This document shows positions 559-5,380 of a stretch of DNA of 64,000 nt, one piece after another. Source of the stretch: Escherichia coli (lineage in GTDB: Bacteria > Pseudomonadota > Gammaproteobacteria > Enterobacterales > Enterobacteriaceae). The position numbers were made by a program, and so were the translations under genes. The number at the start of each line of letters is the position of its first letter. The stretch's first letter is position 1. The stretch lies in assembly GCF_013122565.1 (NCBI RefSeq), contig NZ_CP053258.1; one strand, given 5' to 3'. A model generated the notes under the pieces. The model did not search any database, was not told where the DNA came from, and worked only from the letters and a program-made list of their open reading frames with translations.

Positions 559-913
559 GCAATAGAAAGATTCCTGTTATTTGTTTATGTCGATATATTA
601 CCCAATGGAAATAGTCACTTTTTTCTACCCTAACATACTGAGAATCTGAGGCAACCCCTGATGGCAAATGTGGCATGAATATTGATGCGAGCAAATCGCC
701 GGAATTTCCCGTGATATAAGGGCTGAGAGCAAATCGAGAAAAGTTGATATTTTTTGTCAAAGATAGCGAAAAAACGCCTGAATATTGTGGTTTCAGGCGA
801 ATAATGCAACAGAGTATCAGTGTAGATCACCACAAAATATTTGCGTGATAAAAAGCTATTTGGCGTGAATTATTTCCCTGTCGCGGGTAGTGATATTTTT
901 GAAAATAACACCC

Positions 914-1882
<969 letters not shown>

Positions 1883-4027
1883 TTAAAGTGCGCAGGAGAC
1901 GCAGCCTTCAATTTCAGTGCCTTCCAGCGCCATCTGACGCAGGCGGATGTAGTAGAGCGTTTTGATACCCTTGCGCCAGGCGTAAATCTGCGCTTTGTTG
2001 ATATCGCGAGTGGTGGCGGTATCGGGGAAAAACAGCGTCAGCGACAGCCCCTGATCGACATGGCGAGTCGCTTCCGCGTAGGTGTCGATGATCTTTTCTG
2101 CGCCGATTTCGTAAGCATCCTGATATAGCGCCAGATTCTCGTTAGTCATAAACGGGGCAGGGTAGTAAACGCGTCCTGTTTTGCCCTCTTTGCGTATCTC
2201 TACTTTCGCCACAATCGGATGAATACTCGACGTAGCATGGTTGATATAAGAGATAGAACCGGTTGGCGGCACCGCCTGAAGATTCTGGTTGTAAATGCCG
2301 TAGCGCATCACGTCGTCGCGCAGCTGCGCCCACATCTCACGGGTAGGTAACGTAATACCGCTACGGGTAAACAGTTCGCCAACTTTCGCCGTTTTCGGCT
2401 GCCAGTTCCCTTGCAGATATTGGCTAAAATATTCACCACTGGCATAGCGTGACTGTTTGTACCCGGCGAAGGTTTCACCGCGTTCGCGTGCCAGCAACAT
2501 CGAGGTACGCAGTGCGTGCCAGGTGATGGCATAGAAATAGAGATTGGTGAAATCCAGTGCTTCCGGCGAACCATAAGCGATGCCTTCTCGCGCCAGATAG
2601 CCGTGTAAATTCATCTGCCCCAGTCCGATGGCGTGCGAGGCGGCATTTCCGGCTTCGATGGACGGCACGCTGCGAATATGACTCATATCTGATACTGCCG
2701 TTAAACCGCGCACGGCAGTCTCTACCGTGCGGGCAAAGTCGGGGGAATCCATGGTGTGGGCAATATTCAACGAACCTAAATTGCAGGAAATATCATGGCC
2801 TGTACGGGCATAGTCGAGATTCTCGTCATACTCTGAGGCACAGTTGACCTGCAAAATCTCTGAGCAAAGATTGCTCATATTTATGCGCCCGGCGATAGGG
2901 TTAGCACGGTTTACCGTGTCTTCATACATGATGTACGGATAGCCGGACTCAAACTGGATTTCTGCCAGCCGCTGGAAGAAATCACGGGCGTTGAGGTATT
3001 TTTTGCGGATGCGTTCATCGGCAACCAGTTCGTCATAGTGTTCGCTAATGGCGATATCGGCAAACGGCTTGCCATAAACTCGCTCAACGTCATAGGGCGA
3101 AAACAGCGCCATCTGCGCATTCTCTTTTGCCAGATGGAAAGTGATATCCGGGATCACCACCCCCAGCGACAGTGTTTTAATGCGGATTTTTTCGTCGGCA
3201 TTTTCCCGCTTTGTATCGAGAAAACGCAGAATATCGGGATGATGAGCATGTAAATAGACTGCCCCAGCCCCCTGACGCGCGCCGAGCTGGTTGGCATAGG
3301 AAAATGCGTCTTCCAGCATTTTCATCACCGGAATCACGCCAGAAGATTGATTTTCAATACGTTTAATTGGCGCGCCCGCTTCTCGCAGATTCGACAGCAA
3401 AAATGCTACGCCGCCGCCGCGTTTCGACAGTTGCAGTGCGGAATTTACCGCCCGGCCAATCGACTCCATATTGTCTTCAATACGCAGCAGAAAACAGGAA
3501 ACCAGTTCGCCGCGCTGCTGCTTACCGCAGTTGAGGAATGTCGGCGTGGCTGGCTGAAAGCGTCCAGACAGCATCTCATCAGTTAGCTGGGTCGCCAGTG
3601 TTTCATCGCCTTGTGCCAGCGTCAGCGCCACCATCGTGACTCGATCGGCAAAATCTTCCAGATAACGCTTACCGTCGAATGTTTTCAGCGTATAGCTGGT
3701 GTAAAACTTCCATGCCCCGAGGAATGTCTGGAAACGAAAACCGCTGGCGTGCGCGTGGGCAAACAGCGTAATGACAAAATCGCGAGAGTAGCGGTTGAGG
3801 ACGTTTTCATCATAGTAACCTTCGTTGACCAGCCAGTTCAGGCGCTGCTGCTGGCTACTGAAGGTCACACTGTTCGGACGCACATGTGTCGTCATAAAGG
3901 CGTCTACTGCCTGGCGGTCTTTATCGAACTGAATGCGACCTGCGCTATCGTAAAGATTAAGCATCGCATTCAGAGCGTGATAATCCATCGTTTCCTGCGT
4001 CAGGCGTTCTGCGGTTGTCGTTGCCAA
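1883..4027 (-). CDS. nrdE: Class Ib ribonucleotide reductase alpha subunit
   Basis: 714-aa ORF; ends with C-terminal redox cysteine pair (…EGCVSCAL); operon context nrdHIEF. Confidence 0.95.
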
Positions 4028-4410
4028 AATTCGGTTACTCCTTTACGAACGTTTTCGATATCGCTTTGCGTACCCATGAGTTCAAAGCGGTACAGCCACG
4101 GCACGCCGCATTTCCGGGCAATCACATCTCCGGCGCGGCCATACGCCTCACCAAAGTTGCGATTACCCGAAGCAATAACGCCGCGCAGCAACGCCCGGTT
4201 ATGCTCGTCGTTTAAAAAGCGAATTACCTGTCGTGGCACCGCGCCAGCTGTACCGCCGCCGCCGTAAGAGGGCACGATCAGGATGTAAGGCTCGTCTACC
4301 TGAATCCGTTCCCGCTCATTGAGCGGGATGCGCACCGCGGGCAGCCCTAAACGTTCGATAAAACGCTGCGTATTTTCGGAGCTGCTGGAGAAGTAGACGA
4401 GCTGGCTCAT
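4000..4410 (-). CDS. nrdI: Flavodoxin-like NrdI
   Basis: 136-aa ORF between nrdH and nrdE; overlaps nrdE start by 28 nt. Confidence 0.92.
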
Positions 4411-4652
4411 GCACTGGCCGCGTGTGGCGCTGGATGCAGACGGTTAATCATGTCCGGACGGAAACCAGACCAGCTAAGATCGCCAGCAATCACTACCGGC
4501 AACTGACGAAAGCCCTGAGCACGCAGCGCTTCTGCCGCTTCAGGTACGCGATCGACATTAATCATTTCAAAATCAAAGCCCCGGTTTTCCATCGCCCGTT
4601 TGGTGGCGTGGCACTGAACGCAATCGTTACGAGTGTAAATAGTAATGCGCAT
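4407..4652 (-). CDS. nrdH: Glutaredoxin-like protein NrdH
   Basis: 81-aa ORF with CVQC redox motif ([21 protein letters not shown]…); 4-nt overlap with nrdI start. Confidence 0.93.
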
Positions 4653-4756
4653 GATTCGTATTTCCGTTTAAAATGAAGATACGGCGCGATGATACGCGTC
4701 GGGTTGTCTCTCTGTTGATACAGAGATACTAGATGTAGTTGAAAAAAGATTCAACC

Positions 4757-4772
4757 ACACAATATATAGCAA
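4757..4772. promoter_or_regulatory. Candidate NrdR box in nrdHIEF promoter region
   Basis: Sequence acacaatatatagcaa matches 13 of 16 positions of the NrdR-box consensus as I recall it (acaCwAtATaTwGtgt); lies upstream of nrdH. Confidence 0.35.
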
Positions 4773-4899
4773 ATAGTGGTCGAAATTACCCTGAGTATGA
4801 GCGTGACGGGGTAGGGGGATTTTTGTGATTCAGCAGACAAAAAGAAACCCCGAAGCCAGGCTTCGGGGTCAAAGACGCGTATTTATTATCATTGTTGCA

Positions 4900-5229
4900 C
4901 TACGATTTGCGCATGCTTAACAGTGCGCCGATAAAAATACCTACCGCAGCTGCTGTACCCACGCTACACCAGGGTCTTTCACGAACAAAAGAATCCGCGC
5001 AGCCAACGGCATCGCGCGCGGCTTGCTGGACGCGAGTACGACCATGCATTCGCGCCCTGGTTTCTTTCAGTAGAGCCTGCGCTTTACTACGAGCGGCTTC
5101 AGCTTCCCCTTTGGCGTCGCTGCCCCAGGACTTCAACACAGACTCGAGGCTGTCAGCTAATTGATTGACATCATTCTGGATATCCTGCACGCCATCATCA
5201 ACGTCGTTGCGGTTCGGTCGGTTAAACAT
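4900..5229 (-). CDS. ygaM: ElaB/YqjD/YgaM family membrane-anchored stress protein
   Basis: ORF track gives 113 aa from 5241; K-12-like start is the internal Met (MFNRPNRNDVDD…), giving 109 aa. C-terminal hydrophobic anchor (AAAVGIFIGALL). Confidence 0.8.
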   Translation of the reverse strand: MFNRPNRNDVDDGVQDIQNDVNQLADSLESVLKSWGSDAKGEAEAARSKAQALLKETRARMHGRTRVQQAARDAVGCADSFVRERPWCSVGTAAAVGIFIGALLSMRKS

Positions 5230-5380
5230 ATGATCCCCCATTAGAATTCGATGTAATTTTCAGTGTAGACCATAATTTTCTTAACTGACGTTCATCGCGG
5301 CTTTATGGACTTTTCTGAAAGCGTTGTGAATGCGCAATCAGGTAAGGTAGGCCCGCGGTTGATAATAACGAGGATCAAAT

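Follow-up and report, generated by a model that had tools for sequence, protein, structure and literature searches.

The nrdHIEF operon of an Escherichia coli genome, from its promoter and leader to the first gene junctions: a two-box NrdR operator and Fur binding over the nrdH start codon

Organization of the nrdHIEF locus

The stretch of E. coli DNA analyzed here, 64,000 nucleotides long and referred to as the window, contains on its minus strand nrdHIEF, the operon for the class Ib ribonucleotide reductase (RNR), a backup enzyme of E. coli, and the region under study comprises the promoter, the leader and the first gene junctions of this operon. As evidenced by the open reading frames and the K-12 annotation, nrdH (4407-4652) encodes a glutaredoxin-like protein of 81 aa, nrdI (4000-4410) a flavodoxin-like cofactor-assembly protein of 136 aa, nrdE (1883-4027) the alpha subunit of 714 aa, starting with TTG, and nrdF (914-1873) the beta subunit of 319 aa. 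The upstream neighbor, ygaM (4900-5241, minus strand), belongs to the ElaB/YgaM/YqjD family (DUF883) and constitutes a separate transcription unit. The locus was matched in 5421 of 5426 E. coli genomes, whose annotation of these genes reads nrdE, nrdI, nrdH and ygaM and agrees with the K-12 RefSeq annotation. The earlier note on this DNA had named the operon correctly.

The nrdHIEF operon of E. coli K-12, regulated by NrdR, Fur and IscR, is found at the same locus, with the same 247-bp spacer between ygaM and nrdH and the same gene overlaps as in the window. Identity to K-12 is approximately 97.5% over the region and 96.6% in nrdE. The spacer differs by six substitutions, at positions 4794, 4795, 4833, 4837, 4856 and 4894, none of them inside the NrdR boxes, the -35 and -10 elements, the leader or the start region, all of which are base-identical. 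Note that nrdHIEF itself, the NrdR operator in front of it and the regulation by Fur have all been documented before and leave little for discovery here.

Within the species, the spacer is not always continuous. In 1388 of the 5426 genomes (26%) a two-gene cassette (pdxR-like/CMD) lies between the ygaM side and nrdH. Alignment to L002 and the sequence of CFT073 place the break in homology with such cassette-bearing E. coli at approximately 4828-4836, the upstream limit of nrdH-linked DNA. The intrinsic terminator of ygaM, identified by a terminator scan as an 11-bp stem with a T-run at 4836-4870 on the minus strand, remains with ygaM in the cassette-bearing genomes, and so does a Fur-like 19-mer that lies between this terminator and the ygaM stop codon. 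In CFT073 and L002 the distance from the 19-mer to nrdH is 2109-2111 bp.

Gene overlaps

The stop codon of nrdH and the start codon of nrdI share the four nucleotides ATGA (4407-4410, minus strand, read from the sequence), and nrdI and nrdE overlap by 28 nt (4000-4027, minus strand, from the reading frames and the sequence). Both overlaps had been described in the earlier note, and the K-12 RefSeq annotation contains the latter in the same form. In a comparison of 82 loci from about 80 species of Enterobacteriaceae, the nrdH/nrdI junction was ATGA or GTGA in 81 and the nrdI/nrdE overlap measured 28 nt in 78, while the TTG start of nrdE was kept in 81. At both junctions the upstream stop thus overlaps the downstream start in a conserved manner, and the two overlaps are ancient, fixed features. 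This conservation fits a translational coupling of nrdH, nrdI and nrdE, as far as can be judged from sequence, and the overlaps would probably couple or tune the translation of the downstream genes.

The alternative, that the overlaps reflect genome compaction only and that nrdI and nrdE are translated without dependence on the upstream gene, deserves consideration but appears rather improbable to us. The nrdE gene owns a strong and conserved Shine-Dalgarno sequence, AAGGAG at 4038-4043 (minus strand), situated within nrdI at a distance of 10 nt from the TTG codon; its (A/G)GGAG core was found in all loci listed, and independent initiation at nrdE is therefore possible. Against compaction as the sole cause stand the fixed overlap lengths and the retention of a non-ATG start across these species, as well as the lack of an obvious Shine-Dalgarno sequence ahead of the nrdI ATG when the sequence is read by eye, although all three points are suggestive only.

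The NrdR operator and the promoter

In the earlier note a single 16-mer upstream of nrdH, acacaatatatagcaa, had been taken to resemble the NrdR operator, and PWM scans for NrdR and Fur had been proposed as a check. The 16-mer is found exactly at 4757-4772 and is a true NrdR box (box 1, TTGCTATATATTGTGT, minus strand), but it is only one half of the operator, as a second box, overlooked at the time, is present at 4726-4741 (box 2, CAACTACATCTAGTAT, minus strand). Both match the 16-bp palindromic consensus acaCwAtATaTwGtgt and are the same as in a published binding probe. With a PWM trained on the four boxes of nrdAB and nrdDG alone, leaving out those of nrdHIEF, box 1 scored 12.28 bits and ranked first in the 64 kb, and box 2 ranked third with 11.37 bits. 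The pair reaches 23.65 bits, whereas the second-best pair of the window attains 11.07 bits and no pair in shuffled sequence exceeded 15.5 bits. The boxes are separated by 15 bp (4742-4756), in line with the 15-16 bp, or 31-32 bp from center to center, expected for NrdR. In all 80 species loci the best pair is spaced by the same 15 bp and ends 71-75 nt before the nrdH ATG, the distance in the window being 74 nt. Box 2 is nearly invariant across genera.

The operator overlaps a conserved promoter of the form TTGAAT-17 bp-TAGTAT, with the -35 element (4749-4754, minus strand, read from the sequence) within the spacer between the boxes and the -10 element (4726-4731, minus strand) within box 2. 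The sequence GGTTGAA at the -35 position is conserved to more than 90%. Judged by these elements, transcription of nrdHIEF most likely starts at about 4719. A promoter scan also returned TCAACA-18-TATCAT (4718-4689), a candidate that was rejected, its -10 element falling in the variable loop of a hairpin in the leader. A palindrome, TCTCTGT-ATCA-ACAGAGA, spans the inferred start site; it is specific to E. coli and not conserved in other genera. The -35 element reportedly also overlaps with a type II binding site for IscR.

Binding of NrdR to this DNA has been measured in vitro. The 57-bp probe used in that study corresponds exactly to window positions 4721-4777, and E. coli NrdR bound it with a KD of 138 nM in the ATP-dATP state and 187 nM in the ADP-dATP state (PMC12176259). 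The operators of nrdDG and nrdAB are built, like that of nrdH, from a pair of 16-bp palindromes that each have AT at their center and stand 15 bp apart, and their affinity for ATP/dATP-loaded NrdR is similar (PMC12176259). They are not placed alike, however: at nrdH the -35 element is in the spacer and the -10 element inside box 2, whereas the functional pair of nrdAB is located partly downstream of the promoter (PMC12176259). Since the two boxes of nrdH bracket the -35 element and cover the -10 element, NrdR bound to both would most likely act by excluding RNA polymerase. In Salmonella Typhimurium, nrdHIEF is repressed by both Fur and NrdR, as in E. coli, and mutation of the NrdR boxes leads to derepression (Panosa et al. 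2010).

The Fur-like 19-mer downstream of ygaM

The earlier note had further pointed to an AT-rich motif near 4885-4900 that vaguely resembled a Fur box. The motif, tatttattatcattgtt, is located at 4880-4896, about 5 nt off that position, within a 19-mer at 4878-4896 (sense AACAATGATAATAAATACG) in the 3' UTR of ygaM. The 19-mer agrees with the Fur consensus in 13 of 19 positions and shares AATGATAAT with it; 29 sites in the window match the consensus equally well. A home-built PWM derived from 30 Fur sites of K-12 rated it higher than did consensus counting. The score of 12.05 bits is attained or exceeded at 10 positions of the window, so that about 0.04 such sites would be expected in the 247-bp spacer, and the 19-mer is the best match to be found there. 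In K-12 the copy scores 14.4 bits, and the one difference, a C for an A, accounts for the lower value in the window. The weaker training sites, those at fhuE (10.3 bits), exbB (11.3 bits) and tonB (12.7 bits), score in a comparable range. The 19-mer is thus a fair match to a Fur box, albeit not a compelling one on sequence alone.

Its context is less favorable. Most of the classical operators in the training set (fhuA, fepA-fes, ryhB, sodA and others) form clusters of sites above 13 bits, which both the 19-mer and the start-codon region discussed below lack, and the sole neighbor of the 19-mer in the 6-bp phasing, at 4872, scores 2.7 bits. The element is found approximately 160-178 bp upstream of the inferred transcription start and is not adjacent to the promoter. 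Only 6 of 74 loci, all of them from Escherichia, contain it at 8 bits or more, and outside those loci just its right part, ATAAATACGCGTC, recurs. The loci of S. diarizonae and S. arizonae have no Fur PWM site of at least 8 bits within 700 nt upstream. In the published ChIP-exo and ChIP-seq tables for eight strains, MG1655, W3110, CFT073 (two data sets), W, 042, BL21(DE3), ATCC 8739 and Sakai, no Fur peak covers 4878-4896 or its equivalent. This includes CFT073, where the 19-mer scores 14.4 bits and is separated from nrdH by 2.1 kb, and where the genes c3222-c3225 are without an entry among the Fur peaks. A role of the 19-mer as the operative Fur site is not supported by these data. The resemblance to a Fur box that had been noted for the motif is real at the level of sequence, but the site itself is linked to ygaM, attains 8 bits in Escherichia only and is without a ChIP peak.

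This raises the question whether the 19-mer might still serve as an auxiliary Fur box of nrdHIEF in strains without the cassette, such as K-12, cooperating with Fur bound close to the promoter or looping toward it. Its rank in the spacer and a score in the range of the weaker training sites speak for this, and so does the distal Fur box of Salmonella, which is functional. In Salmonella Typhimurium that box was placed at -309 from the transcription start (Panosa et al. 2010), in contrast to E. coli, where Fur is found at the start codon. A second Fur region in the ChIP-exo data of MG1655, P87, lies 74 bp from the motif and could be read in the same way. Converted from U00096.2, P87 corresponds to window positions 4770-4804; it was seen in MG1655 only, and the Fur PWM lends it no support (0.9 bits). 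It falls approximately where Vassinova and Kozyrev proposed a consensus Fur box, at which Chen 2007 recorded 'extremely weak' Fur binding (PMC2189734). The same work gave no site at the 19-mer. The peaks of MG1655 and W3110 do not cover the motif either, the ygaM terminator separates it from the promoter, nrdH-F are Fur targets in nine of nine strains of the pan-regulon study, and the remote copy in CFT073 has no peak. Together with the missing cluster and the narrow distribution, this makes an auxiliary role very unlikely.

Fur binding at the nrdH start codon

Control of the operon by Fur is nevertheless real, but the mapped binding is in a different place than the motif named in the earlier note. 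The published ChIP-exo and ChIP-seq data position Fur over the nrdH start codon, at approximately 4625-4665. In MG1655 the ChIP-exo regions P88 and P89 correspond to window positions 4625-4654 and 4636-4644, or -2 to +27 and +8 to +16 with the A of the ATG as 0. The peak in W3110 extends from +7 to +19 from the same base, and in CFT073 ChIP-exo places Fur on bases 2-14 of nrdH (+1 to +13), while ChIP-seq from a second laboratory is centered 18 bp past the A. Such coordinates should be read with some tolerance, as the ChIP-exo peaks are not tabulated to the exact base, the one for ryhB being listed more than 100 bp from the site of Chen 2007. The height of the nrdH peak in the CFT073 Fur data is 849. 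In W, 042, BL21(DE3), ATCC 8739, Sakai and CFT073 there is one Fur peak each for nrdHIEF, labeled intragenic, and the published start-codon peaks appear under iron-replete conditions only. An information-theoretical model had likewise predicted a Fur site, rated at 10.1 bits, on the nucleotide directly preceding the nrdH ATG (Chen 2007; PMC2189734).

The bound region coincides with a conserved block at 4625-4673 that comprises the ribosome-binding site of nrdH, the start codon and the first nine codons. Its sequence TGGAAATACGAATCATG(C/A)GCATTACTATTTACACTCG hardly changes among about 80 species, even at synonymous sites, while the remaining leader varies, and it constitutes a phylogenetic footprint. 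With our PWM the match is weak: two sites of 6.0 and 3.9 bits are spaced by 6 bp, the phasing usual for classical Fur operators, but both are weak, and across 82 loci the score at this position likewise has a median of 6.0 bits. A further difference to the classical operators is that the site bound at nrdH lies downstream of the inferred transcription start. Repression by Fe-Fur is most likely exerted from the ribosome-binding site and start codon of nrdH, approximately +55 to +95 relative to that start, and from such a downstream position Fur may work as a roadblock or by spreading toward the promoter. Some observations run counter to Fur acting at the start codon, namely that the PWM match is weak there while the 19-mer scores best in the spacer, that the extra MG1655 peak P87 is as close to the 19-mer as stated above, and that the box at -309 in Salmonella shows distal Fur sites to be capable of a role in this operon.

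The start-codon block might also be conserved for reasons that concern the RNA, such as the ribosome-binding site, structure in the start region or a target for an sRNA, with Fur being incidental or repressing from elsewhere. The block does take in the Shine-Dalgarno region and the start codon, its resemblance to a Fur site is weak, and the neighboring leader hairpin covaries, which shows that RNA-level features exist in the nrdH leader. However, iron-replete-only ChIP-exo peaks are located exactly there in MG1655, W3110 and CFT073, the CFT073 ChIP-seq data of the second laboratory agree, and the independent sequence model of Chen 2007 puts its best site at the same position. We thus consider a purely RNA-based explanation unlikely; note that constraints on the RNA and binding of Fur are not mutually exclusive.

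The leader hairpin

The hairpin in question, CGACGCG-6 nt-CGCGCCG at 4682-4701 (minus strand), is part of the nrdH 5' UTR and is followed by a U-rich stretch. Across the alignment 81.7% of cells are paired, compensatory changes occur in five of the seven pairs, and the median dG for 79 sequences is -7.3 kcal/mol. The pairing was tested with the hairpin as a named structure; RNAalifold on a 110-nt alignment gave none. A search of Rfam yielded no match for it, only sub-threshold chance matches on the ygaM terminator, and a literature search for an attenuator or roadblock in the nrdH leader returned nothing relevant.

One may speculate that Fur, bound to the non-canonical start-codon block of about 50 bp, acts as a roadblock to elongation and that the GC-rich hairpin with its U-rich tail releases the stalled polymerase. 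We regard this as decidedly doubtful. If true, it would represent a protein-assisted termination in the leader, a mechanism that has not been described for nrdHIEF.

Conclusions

Taken as a whole, the locus is with high probability to be read as a K-12-type promoter with a two-box NrdR operator, with Fur acting at the nrdH start codon and not at the 19-mer, and with gene overlaps that are conserved in about 80 species of the family. For the recognition of Fur sites the locus holds a lesson, in that Fur does not bind at the sequence of the spacer that looks most like its box. The real site resembles the consensus poorly and is revealed only by ChIP data and by conservation across genera.

The nrdHIEF operon and its gene junctions

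The minus strand of window 900-5250 holds the nrdHIEF operon and its upstream neighbor ygaM, with open reading frames, all on that strand, at 914-1873 (nrdF), 1883-4027 (nrdE), 4000-4410 (nrdI), 4407-4652 (nrdH) and 4900-5241 (ygaM). Searching with a 1.4-kb query around the finding gave matches of 95-99% identity in 5421 of the 5426 complete E. coli genomes; the genes matched are annotated as nrdE, nrdI, nrdH and ygaM. The layout is identical in the K-12 annotation, where the ygaM-nrdH spacer likewise spans 247 bp; six substitutions separate the two spacers, none in the described regulatory elements. Note that nrdE is 96.6% identical to K-12, with 74 substitutions, as against 99.2% for nrdH, 98.1% for nrdI and 98.3% for nrdF, and this greater divergence may stem from recombination inside the operon.

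Both gene overlaps described in the earlier note are present. The ATGA at 4407-4410 combines the nrdH stop with the nrdI start, and nrdE begins with a TTG at 4025-4027, overlapping nrdI by 28 nt up to the nrdI stop. One locus per species was fetched for 80 Enterobacteriaceae species, the three genes were projected onto each, and 82 loci were counted. The 4-nt overlap, as (A/G)TGA, was found in 81/82 loci, the 28-nt overlap in 78/82 and the TTG start in 81/82, the departing loci being mostly partial BLAST alignments. Both junctions are old and fixed. A Shine-Dalgarno sequence, AAGGAG (4038-4043, minus strand), lies ahead of the TTG, while a clear one ahead of the nrdI ATG was looked for in the window sequence and not seen. 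Translational coupling at both junctions, as the note had proposed, can reasonably be inferred.

NrdR operator, promoter and leader of nrdH

The 16-mer put forward as an NrdR operator (4757-4772) reads, on the opposite strand, TTGCTATATATTGTGT. E. coli NrdR binds a 57-bp probe, ACTATTTGCTATATATTGTGTGGTTGAATCTTTTTTCAACTACATCTAGTATCTCTG, with a KD of 138 nM in the presence of ATP and dATP and of 187 nM with ADP and dATP (PMC12176259), and this probe is the sense strand of window 4777..4721 with no differences. Its design of 5-nt flanks, two 16-bp boxes and a 15-bp linker (PMC12176259) places box 1 at 4757-4772 and box 2 at 4726-4741, both on the minus strand. As an independent test, a position weight matrix (PWM) was trained solely on the nrdAB and nrdDG boxes, four in all; in the 64-kb window it ranked box 1 first and box 2 third, and the pair scored 23.65 bits versus 11.07 for the next pair and a maximum of 15.5 in 20 shuffles. 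The 16-mer is a real box, but the operator as first described was incomplete, box 2 having been missed. Across the 80 species loci, the pair with the highest score always had a 15-bp spacer and ended 71-75 nt before the ATG, and box 2 and GGTTGAA were near-invariant.

We take TTGAAT (4749-4754, minus strand), within the inter-box spacer, as the -35 and TAGTAT (4726-4731, minus strand), 17 bp away within box 2, as the -10 element, which would place the transcription start site (TSS) near 4719. IscR has been reported to activate this promoter through a type II site that overlaps the -35. An E. coli-specific inverted repeat, TCTCTGT-ATCA-ACAGAGA (4709-4726), covers the end of the -10 element and extends over the inferred TSS; it was not conserved in the other genera compared.

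The 5' UTR of nrdH contains a conserved, GC-rich stem-loop (4682-4701, minus strand) with a variable 6-nt loop and a U-rich tail. In the alignment 81.7% of cells were paired, compensatory changes occurred at 5/7 pairs in several genera, and the observed values of the both-side-change measures were reached in only 1-7 of 500 shuffles. Its stability is modest (median dG -7.3); weak intrinsic terminators or attenuators look similar, as do stabilizing hairpins. No Rfam family matched the hairpin, and a literature search for it turned up nothing.

The Fur-like sequence downstream of ygaM

The earlier note had also named tatttattatcattgtt as a weak match to a Fur box; this string lies at 4880-4896. 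The complete 19-mer, 4878-4896, reads AACAATGATAATAAATACG in the sense direction and agrees with the Fur consensus at 13/19 positions, a value equalled by 29 window sites. A palindromic 19-bp PWM was built from 30 sites in 16 classical Fur-regulated K-12 promoter regions (consensus GATAATGATAATCATTATC, 15.1 bits of information). With it the motif scored 12.05 bits, within the 10.3-12.7 spanned by the weaker training sites; ten window positions score as high, so that about 0.04 are expected per 247-bp spacer. As the top Fur-like sequence of the ygaM-nrdH spacer, it was undersold by its grading. The top matches of the window lie at 17332-17350 (18.5 bits) and, in 6-bp phase within 19349-19373, at 19349 and 19355 (14.3 and 16.1 bits), in an AT-rich stretch where other E. 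coli annotate an alpha-amylase-family (ygaQ-like) gene and tRNA-Ile; an MG1655 ChIP-exo peak labelled ygaQ_2 falls in this neighborhood.

All evidence other than sequence similarity nevertheless speaks against 4878-4896 as the Fur site of nrdHIEF. The motif sits between the ygaM stop codon (4900-4902, minus strand) and the ygaM intrinsic terminator found by a terminator scan (4836-4870, minus strand), which puts it upstream of the inferred TSS by about 160-178 bp. Between ygaM and nrdH, 1388/5426 complete E. coli genomes carry a two-gene cassette that is missing from the window and from K-12 (439-2292 in the E. coli locus L002, 902-2809 in the compared locus L082; junction at window ~4828-4836) and that also occurs in many other Enterobacteriaceae. 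Its two genes, which diverge, code for a pdxR-like MocR/PLP-dependent regulator and a carboxymuconolactone-decarboxylase-family protein. In the E. coli genomes bearing the cassette, nrdH-side homology resumes only at about window 4828, and motif and terminator remain next to ygaM, leaving the motif 2109-2111 bp away from the nrdH ATG. Upstream of NrdR box 1, the nrdH-proximal 50 bp come in two divergent haplotypes. In the cassette-bearing strain CFT073 the motif copy scores 14.4 bits, and the ChIP-seq table lists a single nrdH Fur peak (centre 3081278, height 849; nrdH ATG at 3081260) and none for c3222-c3225. None of the MG1655 ChIP-exo regions P87, P88 and P89 overlaps 4878-4896, and the motif reaches at least 8 bits in just 6/74 loci having ygaM, all of them Escherichia.

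An auxiliary Fur site in cassette-less strains is very improbable on this evidence. The small chance we leave it reflects the ChIP-exo table, whose positions are not exact to the base (for ryhB, peak and Chen 2007 site are >100 bp apart), the nearness of P87, only 74 bp away, and a distal Fur box at -309 reported functional in Salmonella. The right part of the motif, ATAAATACGCGTC, recurs together with the terminator in the ygaM 3' UTR of several genera, which points to an element of the ygaM 3' end and not to a Fur site. Right before the terminator stem, (G)ATAAYAAATACGCGTC (window 4871-4890) is conserved in Trabulsiella, Klebsiella, Raoultella and others; at these orthologous ygaM 3' ends (for example loci L036, L049, L071 and L073) the Fur-like left half is not conserved. 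A ygaM 3'-UTR element and a piece of a bidirectional terminator are both conceivable.

Fur occupancy at the nrdH start codon

In a ChIP-exo pan-regulon study nrdH-F were Fur targets in all nine strains; W, 042, BL21(DE3), ATCC 8739, Sakai and CFT073 each had one nrdHIEF peak, labelled intragenic, with neighboring Fur peaks >15 kb off in these six looked-up strains (PMC10164565). The peak lies at 3081261-3081273 in CFT073 and at 2799386-2799398 in W3110, where the nrdH ATG is at 2799379 (PMC10164565). The MG1655 regions, in U00096.2 coordinates as confirmed by the Chen 2007 positions for gpmA, feoA, fhuE and exbB, are P88 (2798743-2798772, window 4654-4625), P89 (2798753-2798761, window 4644-4636) and P87 (2798593-2798627, window 4804-4770). 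The mapped peaks thus meet at the nrdH translation start, with P87 in addition in MG1655. Chen et al. scanned this neighborhood in 2007 and gave a 10.1-bit Fur site at the base preceding the nrdH ATG and a 7.4-bit one adjoining ygaC, and they described the consensus box proposed by Vassinova and Kozyrev as 'extremely weakly' bound (PMC2189734); the position of that box, ~600 bases from ygaC on the upstream side, corresponds to about window 4781.

The Fur-bound DNA falls within the best-conserved part of the entire upstream region. A block of ~50 bp (4625-4673) that covers the ribosome-binding site of nrdH and its first 9 codons is near-invariant in ~80 Enterobacteriaceae species, synonymous sites included; it is better conserved than the promoter and coincides with the Fur ChIP peaks. 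Its sequence TGGAAATACGAATCATG(C/A)GCATTACTATTTACACTCG is near-invariant from Escherichia to Klebsiella, Enterobacter, Kosakonia and Raoultella down to third-codon positions, while the remaining leader varies freely. The Fur PWM yields only 6.0 and 3.9 bits here, 6 bp apart. Despite strong occupancy, the site matches the consensus poorly.

The initial observation is thereby confirmed, and its interpretation holds for the junctions and, though incomplete, for NrdR, but is wrong for the named Fur motif. Operon, NrdR and Fur control are already in the literature. Since the site is situated between about +55 and +95 relative to the inferred TSS, Fur would probably repress nrdHIEF by a roadblock or by spreading toward the promoter, and P87, seen in MG1655 only and just upstream of box 1, may be a trace of such spreading.
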